64,000 nt of DNA from Mobula hypostoma (GCF_963921235.1 NC_086097.1:69008001-69072000), one strand, 5' to 3'. Shown: positions 5,023 to 62,480, numbered from the stretch's first letter. Notes: generated from the sequence alone by a model not told the origin. Program-made: numbers and translations.

Positions 5023-5060
5023 CAGTCAACGTTTCAGGCCAAGACCCTTCGTCAGGACTA
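5023..5060 (-). ncRNA. Minimal type I hammerhead ribozyme motif (PLE)
   Basis: Minus strand: tagtc-CTGACGA-agggtcttggcct-GAAAC-GTT-gactg; stem I agtc/gact. Confidence 0.7.
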
Positions 5061-6373
5061 ACTGAAAGAAGAAATAGTAAGAGATTTGAAAGTGGGGGTG
5101 GGGGAGAGATCCATAATGATAGGAGAAGACAGGAGGGGAGGGGTGGATCTAAGAGCTGGAGAAGGGGGAGGATCATGGGACGGGAAGCCTGTATGTGTAC
5201 ATGTGTAGCACTTGTTCCACTTACAAGGAACAGCTACCTGGACTATTCCTCTTCCCACCCTGTCTCTTGCAAAAATGCCATCCTTCTCGCAATTCCTCCG
5301 TCTCTGCCGCATCTGCTCTCAGGATGAGGCTTTTCATTCCAGGAGGAAGGAGGTGTCTTCCTTTTTTAAAGAAAGGGGCTTCCCTTCCTCCACCATCAAC
5401 TCGGCTCTTAAACGCATCTCCCCCATTTCACGCACATCCGCTCTCACCCCATCCTCCCGCCACCCCACTAGGGATAGGGTTCCCCTTGTCCTCACCTACC
5501 ACCCCACCAGCCTCCAGGTCCAACATATAATTCACTGTAACCTCCACCACCTCCAATGGGATCCCACCACCAAACGCATCTTTCCCTGCCCCCCCTTCCG
5601 CTTTCCGCAGAGATTGCTCCCTACGCAACTCCCTTGTCCATTCGTCCGTCCCATCCCTTCCCACCGATCTCCCTCCCAGCACTTATCCTTGTAAGCAGAA
5701 CAAGTGCTACACATGCCCTTACACTTCCTCCCTCACCACCATTCAGGGCCCCAGACAGTCTTTTCACGTGAGGCGACACTTCACCTGTGAGTCGGCTGGG
5801 GTGATATACTGCGTCCGGTGCTCCCGGTACGGCCTTCTATATACTGTATTGGCGAGACCCGACGCAGGCTGGGAGACCATTTCGCTGAACACCTACGCTC
5901 TGTCCTCCAGGGAAAGCAAGATCTCCCAGTGGCCACACATTTTAATTCCACATCCCATTCCCATTCTGATATGTCTGTCCATGGCCTCCTCTACTGTCAA
6001 GATGAAGCCACCCTCAGGTTGGAGGAACAACACCTTATACTCCATCTGGGTAGCCTCCAACCTGATGGCATGAACATTGACTTCTCAAACTTCGGTTAAT
6101 GGCTCTCCTCCCCTTCACACCCTATCCCTTATTTATTTATTTAATATATATTTTATATGTTTTCTCACTCTGTCCTTCTCACTATAACTCCTTGCCTGCT
6201 CTCCACCCTCCAGGCTCCCCTCCCCCGTCTCTTTCTCCCCAGGCTTCCTGTCCCATGATCCTTTCCCTTCTCCAGCTCTTGGCTCCATCCCTCCCCCTCC
6301 TGCCTTCTCCTATCATTTTGGATCTCCCCCTCCCCCTCCCACTTTCAAATCTCCTACTAGCTCTTCTTTCAGT

Positions 6374-6411
6374 TAGTCCTGACGAAGGGACTCAGCCCGA
6401 AACGTCGACTA
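6374..6411 (+). ncRNA. Minimal type I hammerhead ribozyme motif (PLE)
   Basis: tagtc-CTGACGA-a-ggg-actcag-ccc-GAAAC-GTC-gacta; stem I tagtc/gacta, palindromic ACGT in place of helix III. Confidence 0.75.
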
Positions 6412-7854
6412 TACCCCTTCCTATAGATGCTGCCTAACCTGCTAAGTTCACCAGCAATTTTTGTGTGTGTTGCTTATACAAGGTAACTGACTGCTCCCAG
6501 CTACAGAAATGGCAGGTGAATAGGTAGTTCATAAACCAAGCTAGGAATCTGCTACACAGAACAGGTCTGATTAACACTCACCACCGTAGGGTCCTGACGT
6601 AAAGGGGGTGGAATCCCACATAACGAAACCTCCACTGGAACCCTCCCTCATTGCCGGATGGCAGAACAGACCATACAGCAAGGGCAAGGAAATGTACAGT
6701 GTGCAGAAGCAGACCATACAGTAACCATCTCACGTGCATCACAAAATAGTACATCGTGCATCGCTGAAAGGCTACTCATATTTTGTGGGGACCTACAGTA
6801 CTCCTGAGAGAGATTTCAGGCTGATGAGTAATTCCAGCTGAGCGGAAGTACTTCATCCTCATGAGTCACCTTGTCACCCTTTGATTCAGGCTGGGGTCTG
6901 GCCTCCTTCTCAACAAAAACATGATTCTCCGCCGGCAGAGGAGCACTTGGACTGGAGGTGACAATGTCCCTGACTTTTAATAGCTCATGATAAACGCTGA
7001 TGTTCTTGCTGGGAGTTGGCAACGTCCCTGACAGAAAACATACATGTCAACACAATGCTGGTCACAGTTTACGCTGGTAAATAAGCCAATGTCAGACAGC
7101 ATACCTACTAAATTCCAATTGTCCAGATTACAGCCAAAGTTTACTTTCTTTTTCTTGCCAAACTGTGGATGAACTACACTGTCTTAGAATTCTACTTGGA
7201 CCTGGGCTGAACCTTTGCACCGCATCCTTTCCACCACCAAAACAGGTTATTCACAATCTGCTGTGAGCTGAGGAATCTGCAGACGTCTACCCCAATGATC
7301 TACTAATCAGCTTCCCATCGTGAACACACTGTACACTTGGGCTCGTGCACAACAGCGCCACGTGCATGCAGACTCCTCAAGTCATTGTCACACAAACCAG
7401 TGATGCTTACTTATCACATTGCCTCCGAATCTGGCAATGCCATGACTTTAAGAGTTTCAGAAAGTCTATCATGTTGATGCTTGTTTTTGTAAACTACAAA
7501 CAAACTTTAAACATTTCCCCATCAGTACACTTCCTGTTGTAAATCTGTGTGCTCCATAGAAATGATGCAATTATGCAGGATGTCTACAGTTTGTGCATAA
7601 AGGTGTCAAACATAATGCAATGCACAATAGTTGGGTGAAACTGCACTACCCAGATTCAAACACTGAATCAACACTTAACAGAGGAATGACACATTTAAGA
7701 GGCTAACCCTACATAGGGCACTGGTGGCAATGAGAGGCATCAATGTTTTTCCAAGTAAATGGTCTTTTGAGATTTTGTGGCAGCATCTCTCACTCCCTAT
7801 ATTCTCAAGCTCCTTCACTATCATTTTCCTGAATAATTCCTCAGACCCATCATC

Positions 7855-8861
7855 TGTCATATGGGGGCATTGGGAGCAGACCCAAGTGCAAGACACAGAC
7901 ACTGAAATAATAGGAACAGGACTAGGTTTATCGAGATAGCAAGGGAAATCAGAAAGAAACGACGCTGGACATGGACACAGGCCCTGGATGAGACAAGGAC
8001 ACTGGGCCTGGGCTAGGACTAACACTAGGAAAGTGTTAGTCCTAGCCCAGGACAAGGAACTTGGAACTAGGAGCCTGACCAGGACAAGGAACTTGGAACT
8101 AGGAGCCTGGGCTAGGACTCCGAGCCAGAGACTGGACAGGGACCCGGAACCTGGGTCTTGACTTGGGCTCGGATCCCACATCTAGGCGAGGACAAGACAT
8201 GGCTACAGGACTGGATGTGGCACTCCTGCACAGGACAAGGCACATGGACAGGACAAGAACATAAAGCCGTGGCTCAGACTGGACGAGGTTCTTGGACGTG
8301 ACTCGGACTGAACGAGGTTCTCGGACGTGACTCGGACAGGATGAGGTTCTCGGACATGGCTCGGACAGGACGAGGAACCTCCAGCACAGGGCAGGACAAG
8401 GTACTCCTAGGCTGAGCGAGGAAACTCCAGAACAGGACATGGCTCTTGAACTAGATTTAGCTCGGCTCTTGGACTTGGCTGGGTTAGGCTCTAGGGTACG
8501 GAGCCAGGACTCCTACTTGGGCTCAGAGCCACCGGGACCCTTCTAGGACACAGGGCTGGGACCCTTCCTTGAATGCAGGGGCTGGGATGCTTTCCAGGAT
8601 GCAGGGCCAGGTTGACTGCCCAGGTAACTACCTAGGATACTTGCCAAGGTAAACTGCCAGGGATTCAGATGGGGAGGGGAAGGGAACAGTCCACCAAGGA
8701 ATCCTTGGTTTGAGAGGTATTTATGTGCCAGCCCAAAACCAGAATCAGGTGCCTCAATTAAGGCACTCAGTGGAACAAGGGAACACAGGAAAACCCGGAA
8801 TAAGGAATCGACGGACCGGAGTGTGAACCGGAATACGGAGTTTACGGACCGGACCATGACG
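7855..8861 (-). mobile_element. Solo LTR, Gypsy-like, with internal minisatellites
   Basis: Termini TGTCAT...ATGACG; 5-bp TSD TCATC (7850-7854, 8862-8866); TATA-like ataaatacc on the minus strand; internal ~30-32 bp tandem repeats. Confidence 0.8.
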
Positions 8862-8987
8862 TCATCTCCCAAAACTATGCTTCCATCACTGACATTTTGT
8901 AATTCCTCATATTCCTGACTGGCTTGACCATCATGAAAGATGAACCCTCTCTCCATAGGTCTCCACAACTAAAACCATCCTATCCAC

Positions 8988-10545
8988 TATACACACAATG
9001 CTGGAGGAACTCAGCAGGTCAGGCAGCATCTAGAGAAATGAATGGTCGACGATTCAAGCTGAGACCTTTCACCACAACTGGAAATGAAGGGAGAAGAAGC
9101 CAGAATAAGAAGGTGGGGGAGGGAGGGAAGGAGTACAAGCTAGAAAGTGATAGGTGAAGCCCAGTGGGTGGGGAAAGGAGATGAAGTAAGAAGCTGGAAG
9201 ATGATAAGAAGAAGGAATCTGATAGGAGAGGAGAATCAACTATAGGAGAAAAGGAAGGTGATAACAAGTGAGGAGAAGAGAAGAGGTAAAAGGGGATCCA
9301 AAGTAAAAATGAAGAATAGGGAAGGAGGAGTGGAAAAAAGTTGGAGAAATCAATGTTCATGCCATCAGGTTGGAGGCTATCCAGATAGAATATGAGGTAC
9401 AGGTTTCCCCCACTACCTGAAGGTAGAGAGTTCCTGTGAAACTGTTTGTAAGCCAAAATGTCGTAAAGCGAAGAAGCAATTACCATTAATTTATATGGGA
9501 AAAATTTTTGAGCATTCCCAGACCCAAGAAATAACCTACCAAATCATAACAAATAGCACATAAAACCTAAAATAACATGAACATATAGTAAAAGCAGGAA
9601 TTATGTGATAAATGCACAGCCTATATAAAGTAGAAATAATGTATGTACAGTGTAGTTTCATTTATCAAAATCGGGAAGACAGTGAGCCAAAATCGATTTG
9701 GAGAAAAAAAATCTGCACGTACATGCATGCGCACACAACTGCCCGCACAAGGCTGCACGGTCATGACAGTTTTTCTCGGGGTAAACACACGTATAAAGTG
9801 AGCGTCTTTTTTTCGTAAAAGCGAAAATCCTCTTTGGTTAGCATAAACAGGTACTAATGTAGGTCTTTCGTAACAGCGAGCTGTCGTAAAGCGAACGTTC
9901 GAAAAACGGGGGCCACCTGTATTGCTCCTCCAACCTGAGAGTGGCCTCATCATGGCAGTAGAGAATGCAGTGGGCCAATATGTTGGAATAAGAATGGGGA
10001 TTGGAATTAAAATGGCTGGCCACTGAGAAATCCTGGTTTTTGCAGGTGGAGCAAAGGTGCTCGACAAAGCAGTCCACTAATCTACAATCGGTCTCACCAA
10101 TGTAGAGGAGGCTGCATCAGGACACAACTCCTGCAACTTCACAGGTTAAGTGTTGTCTCACGTGGAAGGTCTATGTGGAGGTGTGAATAGGGAATGGCAC
10201 TTTTGAAGGAGATAGGGTAGGAGGAGGTATAGTCAAGATAGCCATGGGAATCGGTAGGTTTATAAAATATATCAGTAGATACTTGTCTCCAACTATCAAA
10301 AAAGTGGAGAGAGGTGGCAGAAATGTACCAAATGAATTTAAGAGTAGGGTGGAAGTTGGAGGTAAAGTTGATGAAATTGACGAGCTCAGCATGGGTGCAT
10401 GAGGCAGCACCAATGCAGTCGTCAATGTCGCGCAGGGAGACTTCCTTTCCTTTCTTATCAGTCCTGATTGAGGTTTGAAACATTGACTGCTTGTTCATTT
10501 TCATAGATGCTGCCTGACCTGCTGAGTTCCTCCAGCAATTTGTGA
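8988..10545 (-). mobile_element. Degenerate Neptune-type PLE with short inverted arm (10440-10545)
   Basis: Minus-strand IDDCIGAASCTHAELVNFINF (RT), VASHFNS...EATLRLEEQ and LQPDGMNIDFSNF (GIY-YIG end). Confidence 0.85.
9400..9919. mobile_element. Tc1/mariner (Tigger/pogo-like) non-autonomous DNA transposon
   Basis: Ends CAGGT..CCCCC / GGGGG..ACCTG flanked by TA (9398-9399, 9920-9921); removing it restores the PLE sequence gaatatgagg-ta-ttgctcctccaacctg. Confidence 0.85.
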
Positions 10546-10854
10546 TTTTCCATCAAAGTGAAGCATTTTGCCTAGAAAATTTGATAAAATGTTCTACCTT
10601 TCATTGCTAAATGTATGAATAGCAATTATTTGTGGAGTTAATCGCTATAATCATTTCCAGATCAAACGTAACACAGTGGGAATCCAACTGGTCATGGCTC
10701 GATCATCCACCATTGATATATTTTCCACAACAAACTTAATGATGGCATTCCTTTGATGTGGAAATTATATCATGTTACTGTTATAACAAAGCATTCTCAG
10801 AAACAATAGCTTTTAACAGCACTAGTAGTTCTGCCACATCACTTAAAGGGGATA

Positions 10855-14844: not shown

Positions 14845-15404
14845 ATAAACACCAGAGATCCTGCAGATGCTGGAAATCCAGACTAATGCTGTACACACAA
14901 AATGCCAGAGGAACTCAGCAGGTCAGGCAGCAACCATGGAAGTGAATAAACAGTTGGCATTTTGAGCGGACTGAGGTGGAAGGGGGAAGACGCCAGAGTA
15001 AGAAGGTGGGGGGGAGGGGAAAGGGGGATAGCTAGAAGGTGATTGGTGAAGCCACGTGGGTGGGTGTGACAGAGCGTAGAATTCCTCCCTTCCTCCCCTC
15101 CCCCCCCCACCCCCAACCCACCCATCAGTCAGGTCCCCGCCCTGAAACTGGAGAAACAACATACAGGACGTGTCAAAGCACGCCACTGTTCTGGAGTGTG
15201 TAAGTACAAACAAAAGTGTCCTTGCTGCATGTTAGCCGAGAGTTGCACCTAGTAAGCATAGCATCAGCACTGCCAGACCGGGATAATGAGAATCACGGGG
15301 CTTTGGGAGGGGTGGGGGAGACACACTCTGTCACAGTGGGAAAGATAAAGGGCTAGAGAAGCATTTTGTATGTGCTGCTCTGGATTTCCAGCATCTGCGG
15401 CATC
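14845..15404. mobile_element. Short fold-back PLE remnant interrupted by a solo LTR
   Basis: Minus arm (ctgcagatgctggaaatcc...cagcaggtcaggcagc) and short plus arm (gcattttgtatgtg...ccagcatctgc). Confidence 0.75.
15065..15335. mobile_element. Solo LTR (271 bp)
   Basis: TGTGACAGAG...CTCTGTCACA inverted termini and 5-bp TSD GTGGG (15060-15064, 15336-15340). Confidence 0.75.
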
Positions 15405-15764
15405 AAAAGATACAGGGAAAGCATGATGAATAAAGTTTTTCTCGTTAAGCCGAGTGCTTATGATCTGGAATTCAGCCTAAAAGGAAGAATTAATCAAGGC
15501 TTCAAAGGAAACCGGTAGGCAGTCAAAGAATGATTGACAGATTATCAGGGTAGAGTGGGTGATTGATTTTGCTGGAATTGATCAAGAGCACAGACTCAAT
15601 GGATCAAAGTCTCCTTCTGTGCCAAAATGATCATATTATTCCAGCAACAAGACTGTAAGGAAGCAGCTGAACTCAGGTTTATTTCCAGTTACGCACCTCC
15701 CACTCTAATCTGATCATTACTAGTTACAGGTCCTCTGTAACTACACACAAGCTACATTCTGTCC

Positions 15765-16290
15765 ATGGCCATGATGTCAGACCGAAATGGGAGTCGAACT
15801 GAAATAAGAGGCAACACTTCATATTCCATCTGGGTAGCCTCCAACCTGATGGCATGAACATTGACTTCTCTGACTTCCAGTAATCTCTCCCCACTCCCTC
15901 CTTCACTATTTTTCCATTCTCAATTCTGGTTACACTCTCACCCCTTCTCTTCTTCCCACTTGCCCATGATCTCACGCTGGTTTCCCTCCTCCTGCCCTTT
16001 CTTCCATGGTCACCGTCTTCTCCTATTAGTTTTGTTCTTCTTCAGTCCTTTACCTCTTCCACCTGTACCCTCTCAGCTTCACACCATCCCCCATCCCCTA
16101 CACTCGCATCTTCCCCCTCTCACCCACCAGCTTGTATTGTTTTCCCTCCCACCACCTTCTTATTCTGGATTCTGCCCACTTCCTTTCTAGACCTGATGAA
16201 GGATCATAGACTGAAACATCAACTGTCTATTCCCCTCTACAGATGCTGCCTGGTGTGCTGAATTCCTCCAGCATTTTGTGTGAGCTACAA
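15765..16290 (+). mobile_element. PLE 3' fragment
   Basis: GIY-YIG end (ctgggtagcctccaacctgatggcatgaacattgac), pyrimidine-rich UTR, degenerate hammerhead (cctgatgaaggatcatagactgaaacatc). Confidence 0.8.
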
Positions 16291-16755: not shown

Positions 16756-16762
16756 TGTACAT

Positions 16763-16910
16763 GTCGATGAAACCCTTCATCAGATTGATAGCTTCTTGAC
16801 GAAGGGTCTCGGCCAGAAACATTGACTGTTTATTCCTGACCTGCTGAACTCCTCCAGCATTTTGTGTGTGCTGCTCTGGATTCCCAGCATCTGCAGAATC
16901 ACTTGTGTTT
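16763..16910 (+). mobile_element. PLE terminal fragment with tiny inverted piece
   Basis: acccttcatcag (inverted) followed by ttgacgaagggtctcggccagaaacattgact...ccagcatctgcaga. Confidence 0.7.
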
Positions 16911-16949: not shown

Positions 16950-18153
16950 CCCATCATCTACCTGCTGAACCGTGTCTACGCCCACCCGGACAAGCCAGCG
17001 AGCACTGTGAGGGTCACGTTTTTTGACTTATCCAGTGCCTTCAACACCATCCGCCCTGCTCCGCTGGGGGAGAAGTTGACAACGATGCAGGTGGATGCTT
17101 CCCTGGTGTCATGGATTCTTGATTACCTGACTGGCAGACCCAGTACGTGTGCTTGTAACACTGTGTGTCCGACAGAGAGATCAGCAGCACTGGGGCTCCA
17201 CAGGAGACTGTCTTGTCTCCCTTTCTCTTCACCATTTACACCTCAGACTTCAACTACTGCACAGAGTCTTGTCATCTTCAGAAGTTTTCTGATGACTCTG
17301 CCACAGTTGGATGCATCAGCAAGGGAGATGAGGCCGAGTACAGGGCTACGGTAGGAAACTTTGTCACATGGCGTGAGCAGAATTATCTGCAGCTTAATGT
17401 GAAAAAAACTAAGGAGCTGGTGGTAGACCTGAGGAGAGCTAAGGTACCGGTGACCCCTGTTTCCATTCAGGGGGTCAGTGTGGACATGGTGAAGGATTAC
17501 AAATACCTGGGGATAAGAATTGACAATAAACTGGACTGGTCAAAGAACACTGAGGCTGTCTACAAGAAGGGTCAGAGCCGTCTCTATTTCCTGAGGAGAC
17601 TGAGGTCCTTTAACATCTGTCGGACGATGCTGAGGATGTTCTACGAGTCTGTGGTGGCCAGAGCTATCATGTTTGCTGTTGTGTGCTGGGGCAGCAGGCT
17701 GAGGGTAGCAGACACTAACAGAATCAACAAACTCATTCGTAAGGCCAGTGATGTTGTGGGGATGGAACTGGACTCTCTCACGGTGGTGTCTGAAAAGAGG
17801 ATGCTGTCTAAGTTGCATGCCATCTTGGTCAATGTCTCCCATCCACTACATAATGTACTGGGTGGGCACAGGAGTACATTCAGCCAGAGACTCATTCCAC
17901 CGAGATGCAGCACAGAGCATCATAGGAAGTCATTCCTGCCTGCGGCCATCAAACTTTACATCTCCTCCTTTGGAGGGTCAGACATCCTGAGCCAATAGGC
18001 TGGTCCTGGACTTATTTCCTGGCATAATTTACATATTACTATTTAATTATTTATGGTTTTATTATTACTATTTAATTATTTATGGTGCAACTGTAACGAA
18101 AACCAATTTCCCCCAGGATCAATAAAGTATGGCTATGACTATGACTATGACTA
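16950..18153 (+). mobile_element. Rex1/Babar-clade LINE, 5'-truncated, with frameshift
   Basis: RT motifs FFDLSSAFNTI, GAPQETVLSPFLF, KFSDD; C-terminal YKYLG...RLYFLRRLRSF; AATAAA and (CTATGA)n tail. Confidence 0.85.
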
Positions 18154-19219: not shown

Positions 19220-21532
19220 AATATTGAATTGGTTAATATTGAAACAATAATAAAAGTAGGTTCATCATCCTGGCTCCTTCCCCCTTCCTTTCCAGCCCTG
19301 TTGAAGGGTCTCAGCCCAAAATGTCAAGTGTTTAGTCACTTTCATAGGTGCTGACTGATCTGCTGAATTCTCCAGGGTTTTGTGCATGTTTCACCATGAC
19401 CTGCTGCCGAGTTAATCTTGTATTTACTGTTGGTTTCTGTTGCTGTCTTGGTGTATTACTTATCCTCCAATATGAAGAGGTTTTCACTGCCTCTATGTCA
19501 ATCAGGTAACACATTTGCCTTAGTCACTACTTCAGCTGATATATTTTTAGTTACAGAGCTACAAACAGCATTCGTTGCATTCACAATATTGTTTCTCAAT
19601 TTAGTGCAGCCCAGGAGTTTAGACTACATGATTACTACTGTATTTGTTCCTGAAGGTAATAAACACAGGCAGTGCCTTCCAGAGGACAGAACTCCATTTG
19701 ATTAATGATCCTCTATTCAGTTCATTATCTACCTCCTTGCACGGAGCGTGCTTCATGCATACTTCAACTGTAAGTACCCCTTCAAGTCACACAATAGCTT
19801 AAATCGTGCATGTGTCATTGCTTCATCAATATTTTGGAATTCACTGCTAAAATAAAAAAGTTGCAAAAAACTACACTTATTGTAATAGGATGGTCTACGG
19901 CAGCATATAATTAAAGTGTTTTTGAAGTGTACTTCCAGAGGTAATACAGGATTCTTGGCAGACAATTGTGTACTGAACTATCAGCTTATGTGCTTTAAAC
20001 CCCTGGTTAAGGAATAACTATAGGCCAGTACACCATCTCTCTTGCCTCTCCTTGCGGAGTCAAAATATATTTTACGTCCTCGTAAGCAGGTTTATATCTA
20101 AAGTCCAACACAAAGGACAGTGCCTCTAACGTGCTCTCAGCATTGGTTTGAGATATCAACCTATATTTAGCCTTCAGGTCACTTGAGTGGAATTTCATCA
20201 GCACCTCTGGAAAACAAACTTGTCAGTATCTTTTAACTCACAAGAAACTTATTTACTTGAAAGTAAGGTGATTATTTTGCTAGGAAGAGCAATAAGCGGG
20301 ATCAGAAAAGTTTTAGTAGTCACCAGAAAAAGTTGACAAAGAGGAAGAAGATAAAATATGAATAATCTGGCAAGAAAAATATATAGAGAGTATATTATAA
20401 AATTTGTAAGAACTTCAACAACTGTGCAAAAAGAGGGTAGGAGAAAGTAAATATGAATTCTTTAGCAGAGGCAAGAGCACTTATTAAACAATAGTTTGTA
20501 TTTTCACAATACAAAACTAAGGACCAAATGAAAAGTGAAGTTCACCTATTTTATATTTATGAAGAAGTTAAGGGGATTAAAAGCAGAGAAAAGGTGATTT
20601 ACCTTGGGATATGGGAATGGGCACTCAGGGATGAGTGGAGAAGAAATGTTTATACTAAGGAAATTTTTATTCATTGGATATTTCCTACTCCAGAAAGTTA
20701 TGGATGATCAGTCACTAGATATACTCAAGAGTGAGACACAGAACTCTGAGACAAAACCGAGTCAAGAGACAAGAGGATTGAGGTTGGATATCAGCTGTGA
20801 TCTTACTGAGTCGCAGAACAGACTCAAAGATTTGAACATGCTTTCACTTAATGTTTTCTTATGATCTTAAATAATTAAAAACCCATCTAAAATATCATCA
20901 ATATACAAATAAATGTTTATAATGCATATACCAGCTATGATTTTTATGTTGTACCTGTTCCAAAAAGTGATTATCAAGTTATCAAGTGATTGTGCTCACC
21001 GATTGTCATTAGGTGAACCCGTTTAATGCAGGCTCAAGCATCCTGGCAACTTACTTTACACAAATCATTGTTACCAAAGGACTATTTTGAAAATTATTTT
21101 GGATTGGATTGCAGTACAACTCTTTCTCACAAATTGCTTTGAAATTCTAGCCTTTCAGAATGAAAAAGCCGGCATGAATTTGAGAGAAGAATAGGAACAC
21201 GTGAACGAAGGAGGTTGCACTGGAAAAAAACAATTACACAAAACTGTAATTTAAAAATTGTTTTTTTAAGTAATGCATTTCAGAATATCCATAGGACACT
21301 TACAACCTATCAACTGAATTACATCTTAAACCTGTTTTATAGGTAATAAGTATTAATTTCATATTATATTGAATACTCCTTAAGCTTGGATTCTGCACAA
21401 GGAAAAGCATTTGTTGACAGATTTAATCGCAGTATTAACTTTACCAGCAGGTGGCACTCTGACTCAGTTCCACACCCCAGTAATAAATGTGGTGAAACAT
21501 ACAATCTGCTGGAAGAATTCAGCATGCCGAGC

Positions 21533-22958: not shown

Positions 22959-23050
22959 AAGGGTCTCGGCCTGAAACGTCGACTGCACCTCTTCCTACAG
23001 ATGCTGCCTGGCCTGCTGCGTTCACCAACAACTTTGATGTGTGTTGGTTG
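22959..23050 (+). mobile_element. 92-bp PLE terminal insertion
   Basis: Starts inside the hammerhead motif (aagggtctcggcctGAAACGTCgact); perfect 10-bp TSD AATGCACATT (22949-22958, 23051-23060). Confidence 0.85.
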
Positions 23051-33279: not shown

Positions 33280-33310
<31 letters not shown>

Positions 33311-46282: not shown

Positions 46283-47560
46283 GACCATAAGACCATAAGA
46301 TATAGGGGCAGAATTAGGCAATTTGGCCCATCAAATCTGCTCTGCTATTGGCTGATACATTTTTCTTCTGAGCCCCAGTCTCCTGCATTCTCCCTGTATC
46401 CCTTCATGCCCTGACCAATCAAGAATCTGTCAACCTTTGTCTTAAATATACCCAGTGACATGGCCTCCAAAACCACCTATGGCAATGAATTTCACAGATT
46501 CACTGCTCTCTGGCTAAAGAAACTCCTCCCTATTTCTCTATTCTGAGGCGGTGTTTTCTGATCTTGGACTCCCCCACCATAGGAAACAATCATTCTATTG
46601 ACGCATTTCAACATTCGAAAGGTTTCAATGAGGTCAGCCCTCATTCTTCTGAATTCCAGTGAGCAGAGGCCCAGTGCCATCAAACACTCCTCATATGACA
46701 AGCTGTTCAATCCCGGAATCATTTTCATAAACCTCCTTTGAGCATTCTCCAACATCAGCAGTTTTAGGCCTCTTATCTTTCTTAGGTAAGGGGCCTAAAA
46801 CTGCTCAAAATACTCCAAGTGAAGCCTCGCCAGTGCTTTGTAAAATCTGAACATTACATCCTTGCTTTTATATTCTAGTTCTCTCAAAATGAGTACGAGC
46901 ATTGCATTTGCCTTCCTCACCACTGACTCAACCTGCAAATTAATCTTTACAGAATCCTGCATGAGGACTCCCAAGTCCCTTTGCATCTCAGATTTTGCAT
47001 CTCAACGTGCATGACCAGACACTTCCTGACACTGTATTCCATTTGCCACTTCTTTTGCCCATTCTCCTAATCTGTCTAAGTAACTACCTGCTACTCCACA
47101 GATCTTCAAATCATCTGCAAGCTTGGCTGAAAAGCCATCAATTCCATCATCCAAATCACTGACATGTAACATAAAAAGAAGCAATCCCAACACAAACCCC
47201 TGTGGACACCACTAGTCACTGGAGCCAACCAGAAAAGGCTCCTTTTATTCCCACTCTTTGCCTCCTGCCAATCAGCCACCGCTTTATCCATGCCAGTATT
47301 GTCCCTGTAGTACCATGGGCTCTTAACTTGTGAAGCAGCCTCATGTGTGTGGCACCTTGTCAAAGACCTTCTGAAAATCCAATTCTCCACACCTGCCGAT
47401 TCTCCTTTGTCTACCCTGCATGTTACTTCTTTAAAGACTTCCAACAGATTTGTCAGGTAAGATTTTTCCTTAAGGAAACCATGCTGACGACAGCATATTT
47501 TGACAAGTGCTTCCAACTACCCTGAAATCACATCCTTAACCTTCGACTCCAACATCTTCT
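46283..47560 (-). mobile_element. Degenerate CR1 3' fragment
   Basis: Minus QHGFLKEKSYLTNLLE, KLADD, ARLHLEYFEQF; (gaccataa) tail. Confidence 0.85.
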
Positions 47561-51870: not shown

Positions 51871-52441
51871 TATTCAATAATTGGACACATTTTATTTTAA
51901 TAAATATACTTCAGAAATAGCTACTAAGAGATGAGTTTCTATTGTTCTAAGTATAGTGAAAATATAATCTTCCCAATTCCAGTAGAGCTAATGTTCAGCA
52001 GAAATTTCTCAACAGATTTAATGAAATTTTACTATTAATTTACACGCAATATGCCTTCACATCTTTCTATTTCCTGCCAAAATGAATTCTTAAACACCAA
52101 TCAGGTAGAATGGGCCAGAAGCCAAATGCTTCCAAGACATCCATGATACTTTGTGGAAATGGTTCAGAGTCGTGCAAATTACAGCGCCTTGATGAATCCC
52201 AATTGTTCTTCCTATAAAGTAATGCTACACCAATAATAGGCTCATCCGGTTTCAATATCATCTGCTGTCATCCACCTATACTACCAAATTATGTTAAATT
52301 GTATAAGGATATAGAAAGTGCAGTTCAACCAAGAATCAATTTTAATTTTAGATAGGATCTTATTTTAAATTATATGGATTATTTTTAACACATGTATTAA
52401 TTCATTAGTATCGTGTGCAAAGAATCCTCCACTTTTCTTAC

Positions 52442-52753
52442 CTTAAGTTGGACCAGATGAACATCAACGTGCTTATTCTCAGTGTCCTGCTGCACAGAAT
52501 ATGTCAGGTCTCGAACTCGCTCTGATGTCATACGAAGCCAATTTTCAATTTCTGGCAGATGTAAGACAACTTTCCAGTCTGCACCAGTGTGAAGTGGAGG
52601 AGGCTTCTCATAGCGCTGGTTAGCATCCAATTCTTTTATCGCCCTCTCATTCTCTGGTTCTTCCAAAGGGGTCATGTTTGTGATCATGGGAGATGTGTTG
52701 GTCGCTGTGGCATCCAGCTGTTGGCTTCTCATGGGGGATAGTATGATACTCAT
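52442..52753 (-). CDS. AKAP6: A-kinase anchoring protein 6 (mAKAP), first coding exon (104 codons)
   Basis: Translation MSIILSPMRSQQLDATAT...YEKPPPLHTGADWKVVLHLPEIENWLRMTSERVRDLTYSVQQD...HVDVHLVQLK matches the vertebrate AKAP6 N-terminus. ATG at 52753; phase-0 donor AAG|GTAAG after 52442; plausible acceptor ctcattAG| gives exon start at 52782. Confidence 0.93.
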
Positions 52754-55700
52754 GGCTGTTTGGGTTAAAGCCACATGAAATCCTAATGAGTTCAGATGAA
52801 AACAATTGCATGGACCGAATAAAATAAATCCAAGTATTAGAGAAAGCTGAATCAAAATCTAAGTAAATTCCAATTTGATCTGAATCTTAGTTCACTGGAT
52901 CAATTTAGTTCAATTCTTTTCCATCTTGAGGTAGGTTTTTAATTCTTTCTGAGAAATACTTAATGGCACAAATGAAGAAAGAGGAAGCGCACTTGATATT
53001 AAAAAAGGAATTTTGCATCCCTGTCCTCCTAAATAACTTACTGTGAAAGCACGAGAAAATTCATCATGATTTGACGCTGCAAATGTGTGGAACTTACACA
53101 AATTATTTCAAAAAGTGATAACAGAACCCAGGAATGTTACTATCCACTTTGGATTCCAAAATAATACACTGCAAATAAAATAACACAATACCATGGGGCT
53201 GCAATTATGCAATTCTGAGTTATGTTGTTCTTCTAAACTGATATGATTTCAGTCAGATTGATAGGAGAGGCACCACAGCTGAAAGCAGATCTTGTGAGTT
53301 GGAGAAAAGATCCATGGTTTCATCCTCAGTGACACCCCAGCGATTCCACGCTACACAATGCATTTGGTGGTAAAGGAACAACAGACAGATGTGTGTCTGA
53401 TTCTCATAAAACTCTCATCTCTCCTCAAGCCCAATGATCATAACTACTGGAAATCACTTTGACAGAATAATTAAAGAATAAGAGATTATGCTCCTGCAAT
53501 GACGAACAATGATAGGTGACATGGAAGTTCAGCCATGATCTTATTGAATGGCAGATCATTCTCAACAATTGCATTGTCCTACTGCTACTTCTACTTCTGA
53601 GGTATCATAAATCTTTGTTCTTTATAAATAATCTATTTTACCTCATTTTATTATTTTCCTCCTTTTCCTTTTTGATCAAAATAATTGGGCTTTGGGGCAT
53701 TATCAAGACTACCTTCATTTCAAACCTTGGCTGCTCTGACCGGATGGTGGCAGATAATAGTAAAATCATAATAAGATTATAAAATGACCTCAACCAGGGA
53801 TTCCAAAGTATTTGCCCAGTGACAATGAAGACTGATAATAGTTATCCATATTAGACTTGAATCTCTTTTGCTTAATAAACCAGTTAAAAATAATGCATGA
53901 AAAATGCATAATTTAATAAACAAAAATGTAAAATTTCCTAACATTTAAGGTAAAGTGCAACATTGTTCACTTCATGTTATTTATACTTCAGTATATTTTA
54001 TTCTAATATAAACATTGGGAGTTATATTGTATTAATTTTACTATTTTCCACTTATCAAAATATGATGCCAATGCAATTTATGTTGAACATTTTGCCTCTG
54101 TGGGTCACATGGATTTGTATGATGGAACATCAGAGGCTTTGCAGAAGGATTAGTTTTATGCTCCAAACGATTTGCAAATGTCCAATGTTTCTGACACTGT
54201 TCAGACTGAGGATTTGAAAACAAAACAAAAACTTTCCTCATCTCCAGACCTAAAAAATTCAAATGACAAATCATCAAATCAAAATATAAACACTGTAGTG
54301 CCTAGGATCAAATGCCATTATGCATGGCAGCGCAAATTGACAAGAACATAAAAAGGCAAATAAGGTCTATGTTTTTGTTTCTAGAAGCCTAGAATCCAAC
54401 AACTGGTGATATGTTTAAATGTAGACAAGGCCTTAAGTCAGAATCCTGCGTGTTTACTGCATATTATTTTATATAATTTATTATAGGTAAGATAAAAGAA
54501 CAAGTGAAAAGTTATAATGGAAACTCACTTCACTATTACCAGGGATGAAAACAAAAATTCAGGGTTATGAGAAGTTAAGCCCATTTTCATTGGAATATAA
54601 AATACTAACAAGTTATCTCATGGTGGTCTCCTAAAATATGACTTGATAGGATAAAGTGCGATAGATTGTTTTTATTGAACAGTTAGCATTAAGATATACA
54701 TTGCAAAACAAATTAAAGCGAAGCATCGACCTAATTACGCAGAGTGCTTAATATTGATTATTTTCTAAAGCAAATCACTGTTGAAGCAGAATCCACGATT
54801 CATTTGAAAGGAAGTTATTCGCAAGCAAAGGAGCATGGTAGAGTAGTGGAGTAAAAGGGCAAACAAATCAGGTTAAAGTACTTGTTGGCTCGATTCAGAA
54901 ATGTATGTGATTTATAAGCCATGGTATGGACAGTACTTTTTTACGTAAACATTCACAATGGGATCCTTGAGTTCCAGAAAGCCCCTAAGATTATCAGATT
55001 TCCATTTGCCTGCCATTGGACTTTGGTATTTGCATCTGTCTTATCTTATTGGGTGGCTGGCTTTAACAAATCAGATATTTTTGAGTATGTGTCACTATTT
55101 TTTGGAGTGGGAGTGTCTCAGAACTTGAAGATAGTATCTGGAAATATATACTTTGCAGGAGATCCCACAGAGTGTATCATTATTTACATACATTATCACA
55201 GAGTTTTCTACTTCTCCCCGAGAATCTGTCTCAACCCAACCGCAAAAAAAGAGCTACGTGAACCACTTTTTAAAATACTTTGCTTCATTTTGATCTCCCT
55301 ATAGAAATGACCTGGTATTTTCCCTTATTGAAGATCATCAGTTGGTAAACAGGTGGAAACAGACCAATACAAGACATAAGCCAGGTAATACAACTGTCTA
55401 GCCTGTTCCACCATACACTAAGATCATGGCTGATTTAATAGTGGCCTCAATTACACTTTTGTCCTGTTCATGCATGTTGAATACACCATCTTGGCTATAT
55501 ATTCACACTTACATCTCCTTTATTATGCATTTTTAATTCAATTGCCTTCAGCCTTTTCTCCCTTTAACCTACCTGTGGATTTTTATTGATATTGATGTTC
55601 AATATTGTTCTGGAATATTAGCTTATTTCTAAGATCTTTACAGATTGCCAAGGTGTTCCTGATATTTTTTATACCTGCAATGAAAAAATAACAAATAAGT

Positions 55701-56214
55701 AAATATTGAAAGTAGTGATGTAAGCATGTGTTCAATGTAATACTCTCTGTTTAATATATGAACAATAACTTCAACCTATTGACAGCCATTCTTTGAAACT
55801 GGATTTGCTGAGTTTAAACAGTTTAATCCTTATCTTAAACCATAATTCATTCAACATACAAAGAACTCGCCAGACATATTGCTTAATACAACAGGGCAAT
55901 TTCAAGATGGAACAAAGACACATATTTCCTTCTTATCACTCCAAAGCAAATATCGATATATCATTTTTACTGAATCATTTAACAGCCTTTCAAAAACAGG
56001 TTAATTCAATGCCTTTATGAATCAGCTCCAGTAATCATTATTAGTTTTACAAACATTATTATTTGGAACAAATCATTAAGCAAATACTTGCTGAATTTTC
56101 AATATGGATTGATTCATTGTCAATGATCAAAACTCATTCTTTGCTTGGAGATCTTAAGGAGGAGGAAATGCAAAATTAAACTAACAATGTGAGCTGTTGT
56201 TCAGATAATAGAAT

Positions 56215-56420
56215 TTTCCTTTTGAGTCAAAAGATCATGGCCTCAATTGTTAATCCCAATGCTCAGGCATAAAAATGTAAATGAACATTCCAGAACAGCA
56301 CTGATGGAGCAGTACACTACCAGAGGTTATATCTTTCAGATGAGAGGCTAAGCCGTCTGCTCTTTCTTGTGAACATAACAGTTCCCATGGCACTATTTTA
56401 AAGAAGGAATTATCCCACTT
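56215..56420 (+). mobile_element. DeuSINE (SacSINE1/AmnSINE1-like) remnant
   Basis: tctttcagatgagaggctaagccgtctgc...cccatggcactatttt matches the Deu core domain. Confidence 0.65.
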
Positions 56421-56589
56421 CATTGAGGCACACTGATAGGGATGCAAACATGTCTGTATAAAAAGAAATACTAGTTTTTTGGAACACAAATAACTTTTAT
56501 TCAAGTTCAAGTCTGCTACTGACACGATGAACACAGCTGTGAACGCTGCCACAAAATGCCAACAGCATAATGGGCAAAAGAAGAAGAAA

Positions 56590-56850
56590 GTTCAAGTTTA
56601 TTGTCGTTCAACCCTCTGCATGTATACCACCAAATGAAACAATGGTCCTCTGGACCAAAGTGCACAACACAGTGCATATAACTCACACACAACACATAGA
56701 GTAAGATTACCACAAATAAATTATAAATAATAATGTGCATTTATGGCACAAGTTTAAAAATGAACAATATAATGCGACTGGTGAATCATCCATAATGAGA
56801 CCTGGGTGGTGGCAGGGAGCTCAGTGAGTTCGGTAGTCTCACGGCCATTA
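56590..56850 (-). mobile_element. LINE 3' fragment (Rex1/L2-type)
   Basis: gttcaagtttattgtc reverse tail followed by reverse C-terminal sequence. Confidence 0.5.
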
Positions 56851-57073
56851 TTTATGTCAATCACAGGATTGTGCTATATAAGTGGAATCTTTTTTTTTAA
56901 CCACTTATCAACCCATGCCTGAATGTCATCAAAGTCCCGATGCTTGCAGGCATGGGCTGCTTTATTTTATTTGGAACTGTGATTGAAATTGAACACTGTA
57001 CATTCGCACTTCTAACCTTATGATGGATAGATGGTCATTGGTGTAACAGTTGAAGATCTTTACGCATGTTTTC

Positions 57074-57385
57074 TGGGGCATCATTGTAATATAGTAGTTA
57101 GCATAACATTACTACTGTGCCAGCTGTAAGATTGTGTTTGATTCCCCCCACTGTCTGTAAGAAGGATGGACATTCTTCTTGTAAACTTGTGGGTTTTTCT
57201 CCCACATTCCAAAGACGTATGGTTGATTTAGTGAGTTCTGGGCTTGCTGTGTTGGCACAAGAGGCATGGCAACACTTGTGGGCTGCCCATCACATTCTTC
57301 ACTGTTTAGATTTGACACAAATGGCAGATTTCACCCTGTGTTTTGATGTACATGTGTCAAATAAAGCTAATTTAATCTATTTAAT
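57074..57385 (+). mobile_element. Degenerate tRNA-derived SINE (elasmobranch HE1-like)
   Basis: A/B-box remnants, ctcccacattccaaagacg motif, aataaagctaat tail. Confidence 0.55.
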
Positions 57386-57391
57386 CAAACT

Positions 57392-57690
57392 CCTAGTGGT
57401 TAAGGCATTGGACTAGCTACCTGAAGGTCGTGAGTTCAAGCCCCAGCCGAGGGAACGTGTTGTGTCCTTGAGCAAGGCACTTAATCACACATTGCTCTGC
57501 GACAACACTGGTGCCAAGCTGTATGGGTCCTAATGCCCTTCCCTTGGACAACATTGGTGTTGTGGAGAGGGGAGACCTGCAGCATGGGCAACCGCTGGTC
57601 TTCCACACAACCTTGCCCAGGCCTGCACCCTGGAGAGCGAAGACTTCCCAGGCGCAGATCCATGGTCTCGCAAGACTAATGGATGCCTTA
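57392..57690 (+). mobile_element. tRNA-derived CORE-type SINE
   Basis: A-box tagtggttaagg, B-box gagttcaagccc, CORE-like gtgtccttgagcaaggcacttaa. Confidence 0.7.
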
Positions 57691-58259
57691 AATAATTATG
57701 TCCTGGGGCAGGGATGATTATCTTTCAACTTCTGTTGGGTGAAGAATGACTCCAATTATTCGATAGTGCCTCCCTTGTTACCTATTTCCTTCAGCTTTAC
57801 TAAGGTTCCATGATGCTACTTTACTTGTTGCCTTGATGTCGAGGGTGGTGACTCTCACCTTCCTTCTGAAATTCAGTTGGACCAAGTCTATGATGTCTGG
57901 AGTCCAATTGTCCAAGTAATGCTTGCAATGGGCATTGTTGAACCAAGTAATGCTAAGTAATTACTACTTGACAGCACTATTAACAACACCTTTCAACCTT
58001 TTCTGCTGATTTAGAGTAATGTCATTGAGATGAATTGGCCAGAGTGGATCATGATGGAAGTTATTATCTGGAGTCTGGGAATGAGAGCACTTAAAACTAA
58101 ATGTTTGCACCAAACATAATTGAAATGTAGAAAGATAACAAGCTGATTTTGAAACTCTACAATTGACATAAAAACCATTCACTAGCGTATAAAAGTATCC
58201 ATGTTGGTATCAAAAATATATTGGCAATGTGCTCTGGTTGAGCACCCAGTTAGTTTGGT

Positions 58260-58391
58260 CTTTCATTGATTCTTGTATGGTTATTATTCTATTACGGATT
58301 TATTGAGTACGTTCACAGAAAATGGATGTCAGGGTTGTATATGGTGACAGATATGTACTTTGATAATAAATTTACTTTGAACTTTGAACTT
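58260..58391 (+). mobile_element. LINE 3' UTR tip
   Basis: cagggttgtatatggtgaca...aataaatttac(tttgaac)n tail. Confidence 0.55.
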
Positions 58392-59057
58392 GTTGACTTG
58401 TCCTTCTATTCAAAAAGCTAAAGCGAAGATGCGATTCCATCTGTCAGGAGTATGAATTGTTTAGTTTCTCATGGCAAGTTATTAATCATCTATCTGAAAC
58501 ACATGTCAACTGGCAAGCAGATTTTCAGGCCAACTTCTATGATGTATCATCCTCGAAAATTGCACCACAGAGGAAACACAATTGACTACAGCGCTGTGTG
58601 TCATTCTGACCACATGGATCCTGATAATACATCAAGGAAAACTTATAATGACTGTCATGCATCACACATGATCCAATCTGTCATTTAAAAAGTCAGCCTC
58701 ATTGTTCAAGCTGGATGAACTCCAGCCTCGCTCTAATGTACACTTGTAGGTTCCTGAGTTTTGGCTCTGACCTTTTGTGTTTAAGCTCTCTGAATTTAGA
58801 TAAATAGAATGTGTGATTGTTTGAGAAAAAGAGCAGGAATTTAGACACAATTTGAGGAAATTCAACTGAAGCATAATTCACATTAACTTAAAATAAATCT
58901 TTATCATGGTTATTGTGAGAGTCAGACACACAAATGTTGGGAAAAATTGTTAGAGAAAAGAGATCAGTGCAGGTTTTTTTTAAGCCATGGCTTTTCAGTT
59001 TTGAAATATTATGAATAAACTCTTCTCCGGCTTCCAGCAGGGTACAGATGTCAATTA

Positions 59058-59103
59058 TAATCAACGTTTCAATGACAGACTCTGCCATCTTCATCAGGAA
59101 TGA
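59058..59103 (-). ncRNA. Hammerhead ribozyme motif (Poseidon-type PLE)
   Basis: Minus strand: CTGATGA-a-gatggcag-agt-ctgtcatt-GAAAC-GTT; 8-bp stem II, weak stem I. Confidence 0.6.
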
Positions 59104-59864
59104 TGCCTGGGCATGTCTAGTCCAGTGGTATTTATACCCCCATAGTCCGTCTCTCCTGATTGGGTAAGGACTAACCAATCAGATTTCTGTTCTCCCATCG
59201 TGTTTACAATTGAATTCCAGTTCTTACTTAGAGTGAGATCTTCGTCTTTGCTAAAATGAACTTCTTCTACAAAGTAGTTTTATTTCAATGGCCTCCTTCA
59301 CCAGGGGGTCCCAAAAGCCATTGGAGTGGCAAGTAGTTTTGTGCAGTCGAAGTCAATCCTATAGCCATTGCGAATGCAATGTTCTGCTACTGCTGATGTC
59401 TCCGGGTAACCCAAATGGATGCACCTCCTGTGCTCCGAGATGCGGGTTTCCACCGTGTGTCCACATACGCTGCTCCACATTCACAGGGAATCCTGTAAAA
59501 TGCCAGCCGTCCCGAGTGCCAAGTCACCTTTGACCTACATTAACTGGGACTTGAGCTTCCTTACGGGTTTGTGAATGGTATTAATCTGATATTTCTTCAG
59601 AATCCTGGCGATCCTTCCAGAAACCATGGAAAAATAGGGAAGACAGCTGGTAGTGACGGATTCCTTCTCATTGTTAGGATCCCTGGATTTTCCGTCGGCC
59701 CTTTAAAGGACCAGGAACCATCTAAACAGTATATATCCAAACATTCAATTTACGCTAGAGATGGAGAAGCAGTGTTGCCTCCCATTCCTGGACATTCTAA
59801 TATGAGAGAAGCCAGATGGTAGCCTCGGCCAAGGCACCTATCAAAAACCCACTCACATGGACCT

Positions 59865-61663
59865 ATAGAAACCATAGAAACCATAGAAACTACAGCACAG
59901 AAATAGGCCTTTTGGCCCTTCTTGGCTGTGCCAAACCATTTTCTGCCTAGTCCCACTGACCTGCACACGGACCATATCCCTCCATACACCTCCCATCCAT
60001 GTATCTGTCCAATTTATTCTTAAATGTTAAAAAAGAACCCGCATTTACCACCTCGTCTGGCAGCTCATTCCATACTCCCACCACTCTCTGTGTGAAGAAG
60101 CCCCCCCTAATGTTCCCTTTAAACTTTTCCCCCCTCACCCTTAACCCATGTCCTCTGGTTTTTTTCTCCCCTTGCCTCAGTGGAAAAAGCCTGCTTGCAT
60201 TCATTCTATCTATACCCATCATAATTTTATATACCTCTATCAAATTTCCCCTCATTCTTCTATGCTCCAGGGAATAAAGTCCTAACCTATTCAACCTTTC
60301 TCTGTAACTGAGTTTCTCAAGTCCCGGCAACATCCTTGCAAACCTTCTCTGCACTCTTTCAACCTTATTTATATCCTTCCTGTAATTTGGTGACCAAAAC
60401 TGAACACAATACTCCACATTCGGCCTCACCAATGCCTTATACAACCTCATCATAACATTCCAGCTCTTATGCTCAATACTTCGATTAATAAAGGCCAATG
60501 TACCAAAAGCTCTCTTTACGACCCTATCTACCTGTGACGACACTTTTAGGGAATTTTGTATCTGTATTCCCAGATCCCTCTGTTCCACTGCATTCCTCAG
60601 TGCCTTACCATTAACCCTGTATGTTCTACCTTGGTTTGTCCTTCCAACGTGCAATACCTCACACTTGTCTGTATTAAACTCCATCTGCCATTTTTCAGCC
60701 CAGTTTTCCAGCTGATCCAAGTCCCTCTGCAGGCTCTGAAAACCTTCCTCACTGTCTACTACACCTCCAATCTTTGTATCATCAGCAAATTTGCTGATCC
60801 AATTTACCACATTATCATCCAGATCATTGATTATAGATGACAAATAACAATGGACCCAGCACTGATCCCTGTGGCACACCACTAGTCACAGGCCTCCACT
60901 CAGAGAAGCAATTCTCTACCACCACTCTCTGGCTTCTTCCATTGAGACAATGTCTAATCCAATTTACCACCTCTACAAGTATACCTAGCGACTGAATCTT
61001 CCTAACTAACCTCCCATGCGGGACCTTGTCAAAGGCCTTACTGAAATCCATGTAGACAATATCCACTGCCTTCCCTCCATCCACTTTCCTGGTAACTTCC
61101 TCGAAAAACTCCAATAGATTGGTCAAACATGACCTACCACGCACAAAGCCATGTTGACTCTCCCTAATAAGACCCTGTCTATCCAAATGCTTGTAGATTC
61201 TGTCTCTTAGTACTCCCTCCAATAACTTACCTACTACCAACATTAAACTCACTGGCCTATAGTTTCCTGGATTACTTTTTGATCCTTTTTTAAACAACGG
61301 AACAACATGAGCCACTCTCCAATCCTCCGGCACCTCACCCGTAGACAGTGACATTTTAAATATTTCTGCCAGGGCCCCCGCAATTTCAACACTAGTCTCC
61401 TTCAAGGTCCGAGGGAACACTCAGTCAGGTCCCGGGGATTTATCCACTTTAATTTTCCTCAAGACAGCAAGCACCTCCGCCTTTTTAGTCTGTACAGTTT
61501 CCGTGATCTCACTACTTGATTCCCTCAATTCCATAGACTTCATGCCAGTTTCCTTAGTAAATACAGATGCAAAAAACCTATTTAAGATCTCCCCCATTTC
61601 CTTTGGTTCCGCACATAGCCGACCACTCTGATCTTCAAGAGGACAATTTTATCCCTTACAATC
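59865..61663 (-). mobile_element. CR1 LINE 3' part nested in the PLE
   Basis: Minus ORFs YRPVSL, GVPQGSVLGP, KFADD, RPNVEYCVQFWSP with one frameshift; (GGTTTCTAT)n tail at 59865. Confidence 0.93.
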
Positions 61664-62432
61664 AAAATACCTCAAGAATAACGGCCATCATCATGCTTCT
61701 AAACGTAGAGCAGTTCTTTCTACTTTGATTAACTGTGCGAAAACTATTTCAGTCTCCCCAAGGAAATAAAATGATTACGCATGACGTTCCTACGGAATGG
61801 CTACAAGGTGAAGGAAATCAACTGGGCCCTTAAAAGGGACGATGGAAAAACTAGGAAATATAACAACGAGGAGAAACCTGTCGTTACCGCCTATCTTCCC
61901 CATATTTCCATGGTTTCCAGAACGATCACCAGGATCCTTAAGGAATACTGGATTAATACCATCCACAAACCCATAAGGAAGTTCAAATCACAGCTTATGT
62001 GGGTCAAAGATCTCCTGGGACTCAGGTTGGCTGGCGTATGCAGGATTCCCTGTGAATGCAGAGCAACGTATATCAGCCAGATGGGATGCCCCATGGAAAC
62101 TCGCATTTAGGATCACCGGACATGTATCCGTTTGGGTTACCCGTAGAAATCAGCAGCAGCAAAACATTCCACTCCCAGTGGCCATAGGATTGACTTCAAT
62201 GGCACAAATCGTACCACACCAATGACTTTTTGGACCATCTGCTGAAGGAAGTTATTGAAATAAAAGCAGAGGAAAAGAATTTTAACAAAGACAAAGGTCT
62301 CACTCTAAGTAAGATCTGGAATTCAATTATAAACGAGGTGGGAGAGCAGAAACCAGATTGGATGAGGACTAACCAATCAGGAGGGATGGACTACAGGGGT
62401 ATAAATACCACCAGCCTAGACATGTTCAAGCA

Positions 62433-62480
62433 TCATCTCTGATGAAGATGGCAGAGTTTGGCATCGAAACATTAGTAATA
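62433..62480 (+). ncRNA. Hammerhead ribozyme motif, degenerate (Poseidon-type PLE)
   Basis: CTGATGA-a-gatggcag-agt-ttggcatc-GAAAC-ATT. Confidence 0.5.

Follow-up and report, generated by a model that had tools for sequence, protein, structure and literature searches.

The window examined here is a stretch of 64,000 nucleotides from Mobula hypostoma (NC_086097.1:69008001-69072000) that lies within the gene AKAP6, and the AKAP6 introns in it carry dispersed minimal hammerhead ribozyme motifs belonging to Penelope-like elements (PLEs). A preliminary description of the sequence had placed AKAP6 on the minus strand, making minus-strand motifs sense to its pre-mRNA, and this orientation was confirmed. 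A frame at 52397-52858(-) shows up to 74% identity to AKAP6 proteins over ~70% of its length, and the coding exons run on the minus strand from C1:69060756 down to C1:68733107, with the exon that follows the window's coding exon lying 8.6 kb outside the window. Two exons were located inside it:

52442-52755, minus strand: first coding exon of AKAP6 (protein matches and contigs).
55573-55676, minus strand: upstream 5' exon of AKAP6, 104 nt (AG before, GT after; contig junctions).

AKAP6 contigs of mRNA length are present in runs that we guessed to be RNA, and contigs of three such runs (X2, X3 and X6) join exon 55573-55676 to position 52755. The same exon is contained in an 8881-nt contig of run X1, which carries 100 further bases without a match anywhere in 55400-64000; another AKAP6 exon lies beyond the window end. 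All hammerhead copies are intronic. Those from 5023 to 45955 share one intron of ~61 kb, and, since the 100 contig bases found no place in 55400-64000, for the copies at 59058 and 62433 an earlier intron, upstream of exon 55573-55676, is the most likely place.

Five motifs (5023, 6374, 32967, 33385 and 59058, named here by their low coordinate) and seven decayed copies had been described, and all were found at the positions given. The pattern CTGANGA-N8..30-GAAACGTY matches the window five times, compared with a mean of 0.015 and a maximum of 1 in 200 first-order shuffles. The claim that the five cores are near-intact stood for the core itself, CUGANGA...GAAA...UH, which all five retain; a stricter descriptor, requiring the core together with at least 4 bp of helix I and at least 3 bp of helix II, is passed by only three of the five, 5023(-), 6374(+) and 32967(-), in which a helix I of 4-5 bp closes the core. 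The first helix I pair of 33385 is a G.G mismatch, and helix I of 59058 consists of 2 bp followed by a U.U mismatch. Helix III is indeed reduced to the bare palindrome ACGT in 5/5 named copies, which have no loop 3, are palindromic at 15.1-16.1 (ACGU) and keep an unpaired A between positions 9 and 10.1. The 10.1-11.1 pair is G-C in 6374 and 32967, and G.U in 5023, 33385 and 59058. Cleavage had been expected after GTC/GTT. Position 17 (H17) holds C at 32971 but U at both 5028 and 59063, leaving 5023 and 59058 with GUU, a slower cleavage site than GUC. The seven decayed copies have damaged cores and all lie on the plus strand, antisense to AKAP6. An Rfam scan of the window with E up to 10 returned 29 matches, none of them a hammerhead; since the motif lacks helix III, we infer that this blank is not evidence against the motifs.

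The motifs belong to two element families. Family A is represented in full length by a natural copy, L007:2873-7214, in which 829-bp direct repeats (98% identical, with a hammerhead in each) enclose a reverse transcriptase (RT; RVT_1, E 5e-5) and a GIY-YIG endonuclease (E 2e-4); the Atlas gives GIY-YIG clusters at 0.96 for this family. Before the endonuclease, the L007 translation contains a CX4CxxC linker, which fits the CX2-5CxxC zinc-finger definition given for Neptune (PMC8557442; this and all papers below are cited from the excerpts of them that were available). By that definition, and on motifs and not a tree, family A is a Neptune-type, endonuclease-containing (EN+) PLE; the linker does not exclude Nematis, which also has this motif. 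Family-A pieces in the window show 62-95% identity to L007. The ribozyme sits ~60 bases from the end of the terminal repeat, termed a pseudo-long terminal repeat (pLTR), and because of this position truncated family-A ends always include it. The reading frame of L007 is broken between RT and GIY-YIG. At this break lies a poly-C tract (about 5600-5640(+) in the window, and in L007-L014) whose length varies among 17 unselected copies, and which is a slippage hotspot. A programmed frameshift from RT to endonuclease was considered and is not supported, as the query had selected broken copies and tract length varies in the 17 unselected ones.

By profile search, 17 repeat ends of family A were detected in the window, and the reversed control gave 0. 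Those not previously listed are 8995(-), 10981(+), 14898(-), 21506(-), 22956(+), 36304(-) and 39522(-). The family-A features are given below, with the basis of each in brackets:

4913-4924, unstranded: 12-bp target-site duplication on the left of insertion 1, with its second copy at 6477-6488 (sequence).
4925-5171, minus strand: inverted pLTR arm of insertion 1, family A, with a one-sided tail; sense to AKAP6 (alignment).
5023-5060, minus strand: minimal hammerhead, sense, with intact core, GUU, and H17 at 5028; predicted to be paired with 6374-6411 (descriptor and fold).
5230-6475, plus strand: 5'-truncated body of insertion 1, comprising RT thumb/linker, a GIY-YIG remnant in broken frame and the 3' pLTR (85% identity to L007).
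6374-6411, plus strand: minimal hammerhead, descriptor-intact, antisense to AKAP6 (descriptor).
6477-6488, unstranded: right target-site duplication of insertion 1 (sequence).
8995-10436, minus strand: older remnant of family A, newly listed, whose low end holds a decayed hammerhead; inverted partner 10450-10546 (profile search).
10450-10546, plus strand: decayed pLTR end (first listed as 10460), helix II partly deleted; antisense (profile search).
15754-16278, plus strand: older family-A remnant with a decayed hammerhead (first listed as 16190); inverted partner 14898-14967 (profile search).
16794-16910, plus strand: short decayed pLTR end (first listed as 16795); antisense (profile search).
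19281-19380, plus strand: decayed pLTR end (first listed as 19297); antisense (profile search).
22956-23046, plus strand: young pLTR end, cut off inside the hammerhead core (profile search).
32900-33294, minus strand: sense arm of insertion 2, family A (alignment).
32966-33003, minus strand: best sense hammerhead, with intact core, G10.1-C11.1, GUC, and H17 at 32971; predicted to be paired with 33385-33422 (descriptor and fold).
33333-33524, plus strand: antisense arm of insertion 2, with tail; motif at 33385-33422, first helix I pair broken (alignment).
36304-36606, both strands: fold-back pair of decayed pLTR ends, 36304-36392 minus and 36463-36564 plus (the latter first listed as 36476) (profile search).
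44890-46042, plus strand: older 5'-truncated family-A remnant with a decayed hammerhead (first listed as 45955); antisense (profile search).

Family B contributes the remaining named motif, in an old insertion near the high end of the window:

59007-59712, minus strand: sense arm of the family-B insertion; its motif, 59058-59103, has a long helix II, a short helix I and GUU (sequence comparison).
59899-61657, minus strand: long interspersed nuclear element (LINE) fragment between the family-B arms, with RVT_1, resembling the LINE at 26175-29069 (Pfam and comparison); we take it to be of the CR1 type.
61825-62529, plus strand: antisense arm of the family-B insertion, with a GIY-YIG-like remnant and the decayed motif 62433-62478 (sequence comparison).

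Copies of family B are old, about 78-80% alike, and most of those seen have a helix I of 2 bp followed by a mismatch, with the motif placed after the endonuclease remnant. A direct Pfam scan of five family-B frames gave nothing significant, nor did one of seven window frames (six PLE remnants and one AKAP6 exon). Two pairwise comparisons were blank, a tblastn search with the family-A RT recovered no family-B RT, a homolog search at E 1e-25, too strict a cut-off, kept 0 of 535 candidates, and none of 20 loci held a full-length copy. The Atlas gives HTH_animal and GIY-YIG clusters at 0.95. Among relatives of family B (E down to 1e-44), RVT_1 was found upstream of the matched region in all eight longer matches scanned and a weak GIY-YIG match in one of them; the linker zinc finger was not seen in the two relative sequences read. 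With RT, a C-terminal GIY-YIG and no linker finger, family B is assigned, again by motif and not by tree, to the Penelope/Poseidon type.

The inverted arrangement of these copies reflects how the elements inserted. The segments 4925-5171(-) and 5230-6475(+) form one insertion bounded by a 12-bp target-site duplication, and 14-base direct repeats with one mismatch at insertion 2 and at the family-B insertion are probably target-site duplications too. The motifs 5023/6374, 32967/33385 and 59058/62433 are paired arms of single insertions, and the copies are not independent. The inverted arms measure 165-717 bp and share 77-87% identity. An inverted partner is present for all four minus-strand family-A copies in the window that have an alignable hammerhead region (4975, 8995, 32915 and 36304). 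We also used a sample of 1.514 Mb from three genes: 314 kb of AKAP6, 800 kb of the neighbouring gene NPAS3, whose 98% identity to ray proteins puts the host among batoids, and, from C40, 400 kb of a paralogue on the plus strand. Here, 68 of 134 neighbouring pairs under 2 kb apart are head-to-head (p 2e-10 vs 25%). Inverted copies with a tail at one end only are the insertion structure described for PLEs (PMC8557442, PMC3846280). In the excerpts of these two papers, EN+ Neptune and Penelope/Poseidon elements share with our families the RT with C-terminal GIY-YIG, pLTRs in direct orientation where the copy is full-length, inverted copies placed head-to-head, the one-sided tail and the target-site duplication; the CX2-5CxxC linker occurs in family A and not in family B, and no difference from the described groups was found.

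Family A is abundant. A 34-place core-intact pattern matches the genome 58,985 times (29,427 on the plus and 29,558 on the minus strand; control 0), a single 37-base form occurs 4,524 times, and the window holds two matches to the 34-place pattern, against 1.09 expected. The three genes contain 311 family-A ends, of which 63, with at least 85% identity over at least 90 aligned bases, make up a young set. Some young copies share 97% identity with L007, which suggests that the family was recently active. Helix II of the family has 4 bp, and in 43 of the 63 young copies U replaces C at position 11.1, so that helix II is closed by a G.U pair, which was thus carried by an actively spreading subfamily. 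The idea that U11.1 is a lesion in 5023 is thereby ruled out, since U is the majority state. The density of family-A ends is 29.8 per 100 kb in the C40 paralogue (C40:5770001-6170000), 15.6 in AKAP6 and 17.9 in NPAS3.

The earlier proposal that minimal type I hammerheads from the terminal repeats of PLEs are present here, their palindromic helix III being suited to dimers, is supported. The window motifs are ordinary members of a class described in 2014, to which they add ray copies. As excerpted, that description (Cervera and De la Pena 2014, PMC4209133) includes a type I core with an unpaired base between 9 and 10.1, palindromic 15.2-16.2, no loop 3 and a short helix I; location in pLTRs, mostly in dispersed truncated elements; pairs on opposite strands 100-700 bp apart; and Neptune and Poseidon elements of fishes. 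Our copies differ in their host, a batoid-like cartilaginous fish, in the 4-bp helix II and frequent 10.1-11.1 G.U pair of family A, and in number, since the one-pattern count exceeds the 4,000-9,000 reported for coelacanth and Xenopus, with different counting methods. Non-LTR retrozymes (bioRxiv 10.64898/2026.07.22.740005) are likewise PLE-derived type I hammerheads in vertebrates, one of them chondrichthyan, with monomers along chromosomes. An array of this kind was considered for the window and rejected: those retrozymes form tandem arrays, whereas the named copies are inverted arms or solo ends on PLE coding remnants, with no head-to-tail tandem.

A deficit in Xenopus introns is reported in the available part of the same preprint; in contrast, we saw no sense-strand deficit in the three genes. 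The 311 ends comprise 154 sense and 157 antisense copies (p 0.91; interval 0.44-0.55), the solo copies 77 and 80, and the young copies 37 and 26 (p 0.21). After one of 25 descriptor matches was dropped as not belonging to family A, descriptor-intact copies were 13 sense and 11 antisense (95% interval 0.33-0.74). Nor is the ribozyme core conserved after insertion. Across the 63 young copies, departures from the majority number 12 of 559 (2.1%) at core positions other than CpG and 119 of 4509 (2.6%; p 0.57) in the flanks. Within the ribozyme, CpG sites of the palindrome, cut site and core are changed at 43 of 374 (11.5%), compared with 36 of 250 (14.4%) for CpG outside it (p 0.33). Decay of the palindrome and cut site runs at the rate that is ordinary for CpG. 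The 5023 motif departs from the young majority at two positions, both C-to-T at CpG. With sites pooled, flank divergence was 0.111 in sense and 0.134 in antisense copies, a difference that a per-copy test reduced to p 0.065.

We consider it about 86% probable that the motifs are minimal type I hammerheads of dead, 5'-truncated PLEs, likely decaying neutrally and likely not cutting host RNA, each named sense copy being predicted to be masked by its inverted twin. Retrotransposition of PLEs placed truncated and frequently inverted ends in AKAP6 introns, the ribozyme always included. The ribozyme may be maintained in the element lineage, where tandem copies or element protein could complete the hammerhead, and, judging from the literature, any function it has would be in the tandem transcript of the element itself, either as a dimer or together with element protein; after insertion it would decay neutrally. 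In the AKAP6 transcript, the antisense arm of each of the three named sense copies lies 0.36-3.4 kb ahead of its sense copy, so that RNA polymerase II makes the antisense arm first, and the sense copy is predicted to zip into a long hairpin with its twin, becoming unavailable for dimers. Host RNA is likely to remain uncut at these copies because each would be zipped into double-stranded RNA in this way.

Folding predictions agree with this picture. In folded natural segments, the mean probability that ribozyme bases pair with the antisense arm is 0.92 for 32967 and 0.97 for 5023, with no intra-ribozyme pairing in either, and in nascent-chain prefixes the same pairing ranges from 0.81 to 0.96. 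Predicted arm duplexes reach -250, -398 and -327 kcal/mol, compared with -62, -80 and -112 for the arms folded apart. Even alone, the motif is predicted to prefer an inactive rod, where CGUC of the cleavage site is bound to core G5-G8.

Several observations weigh against neutral decay behind an inverted twin. Both Pfam matches of L007, RVT_1 and GIY-YIG, fall under the curated cut-offs. The strand test draws on three genes, its power for intact copies (13/24) is low, and the stricter 34-base pattern splits 8 sense to 12 antisense. When core-minus-flank decay was compared per copy, in 207 of the 311 copies (103 sense, 104 antisense), it was higher in sense copies (0.035 vs 0.013, p 0.069; solo p 0.49), which is a weak hint of selection against intact sense motifs. 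The energies describe secondary structure at 37 C, and ignore tertiary contacts, proteins, ADAR unwinding and temperature. Finally, for 8 of the 13 intact sense copies in the three genes, no inverted neighbour lies within 5 kb. Masking therefore cannot explain in general why such copies are tolerated; weak intrinsic activity, we infer, is the more general reason. We also considered the inverted arms as a selected safety catch, which the counts do not support (8 of the intact sense copies are solo and 5 are paired, compared with 5 and 6 of the intact antisense copies). The useful results are thus negative ones: long introns tolerate minimal hammerheads that are intact and on the sense strand, and a common inverted-arm anatomy is predicted to mask the named sense copies.

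The copies might still affect the host by means other than catalysis, through intronic double-stranded RNA (A-to-I editing or back-splicing) or through an acceptor-like site. We regard this as unlikely, and it is compatible with dead elements decaying neutrally. The length and identity of the arms, with their strong predicted duplexes, speak for the first route, but the repeats do not flank an exon. For the second, a pyrimidine tract ending in AG stands just before helix I in 5023 (window 5061-5110(-)), and an intron end at helix I is described for Drosophila virilis Penelope in the excerpt of PMC4209133. This AG is kept in 27 of 29 young sense copies; against an acceptor role, it is kept equally in young antisense copies (19/20), and 32967 has AA. 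By the same counts, selection against the AG in sense copies was not seen.

It is improbable that unmasked solo sense copies are occasionally cut in trans by PLE transcripts or protein, at little host cost. The best local candidate is L018:4860-4891(-), that is C1:68992891, a descriptor-intact hammerhead of family A that stands alone in the next intron, is sense to AKAP6 and has no inverted repeat within its 10-kb stretch; however, in its minimum free energy structure in a 1.2-kb context it is not folded as a hammerhead. The Poseidon element PAc of Anolis (PMC11167929, in part) offers a precedent, with a hammerhead in the pLTR near the RT start 'tail'. Its activity has been measured, being absent without protein, gained once the protein is added and not needed for insertion in vitro; yet the excerpt reports no RNA-seq reads ending at the site. 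The recent activity suggested by young copies and the weak trend in core decay would fit trans cutting, but solo copies have no strand bias (77 vs 80; intact 8 vs 5), and the proposal is inapplicable to the three named sense copies of the window. A wider version, in which long pre-mRNAs of a ray, given tens of thousands of core-intact motifs, bear many half-ribozymes, and unmasked sense ones (in AKAP6, C1:68992891) are completed in trans by Penelope transcripts or protein and transposon expression nicks host introns genome-wide, has a slimmer chance still. Trans cleavage, if demonstrated, would tie the expression of transposons to breaks in host pre-mRNA and bear on the role of PLE hammerheads. 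We found no paper on host-intron cleavage by PLE hammerheads in rays in the literature searched, most subscription journals being outside its coverage.

The preliminary description had suggested that two sense copies could pair through ACGT and cut the intron co-transcriptionally; in the form weighed here, 32967 and 5023 do so on the nascent AKAP6 transcript, with helix I also taking part. The two copies are sense and have intact cores, the ~61 kb intron would put both on one nascent chain, and a dimer with 14 intermolecular pairs can be drawn. Among metazoan minimal hammerheads, that of Schistosoma is inactive as a monomer and cleaves weakly in vitro in dimeric and trimeric constructs, according to the excerpt of PMC4209133, which also notes opposite-strand pairs. 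Nevertheless, the antisense arm of each copy is predicted to have paired with it by the time the other copy is transcribed, and 27,943 nt separate the two copies. The active dimer is predicted at -17.6 kcal/mol, compared with -26.1 for two monomers and -34.2 for the best co-fold, which is inactive. The 5023 copy has GUU, a triplet that PMC3138052, as excerpted, lists only as cleavable, and sense copies are not depleted. The suggestion is thus not supported; on these models co-transcriptional dimer cleavage of the AKAP6 intron is unlikely rather than refuted, and we consider this particular pairing very improbable.

Co-option of one copy by the host as a regulatory intronic ribozyme, like that of CPEB3, is scarcely credible: intronic ribozymes can tune mRNA maturation, and the CPEB3 ribozyme is likewise intronic and sense to its pre-mRNA (PMC10274809, in part), but that is a single conserved copy of measured activity with an HDV-like fold (bioRxiv 2022.09.22.508989, in part), whereas ours are young, high-copy families with ordinary CpG-type changes, predicted to be masked and lacking a helix III for monomer activity, and their core and CpG sites decay like the flanks in the 63 young copies, a test made at the level of the family.

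Besides the PLE insertions, the window holds other repeats and features. At 26175-29069(+) lies a nearly whole LINE open reading frame 2 with 964 open codons and endonuclease and RT domains, antisense to AKAP6, and RT remnants of another non-LTR family, with an ALKBH8_N Pfam match, lie at 17159-17998(+) and 35137-36204(-). Short near-perfect hairpins with sub-threshold microRNA matches occur at 7993-8064, in a repeat-rich stretch, and at 46757-46805. Very deep contig cover within 56600-58400 marks pieces of another high-copy repeat family, at 56620-56850, 57313-57774 and 58237-58467.

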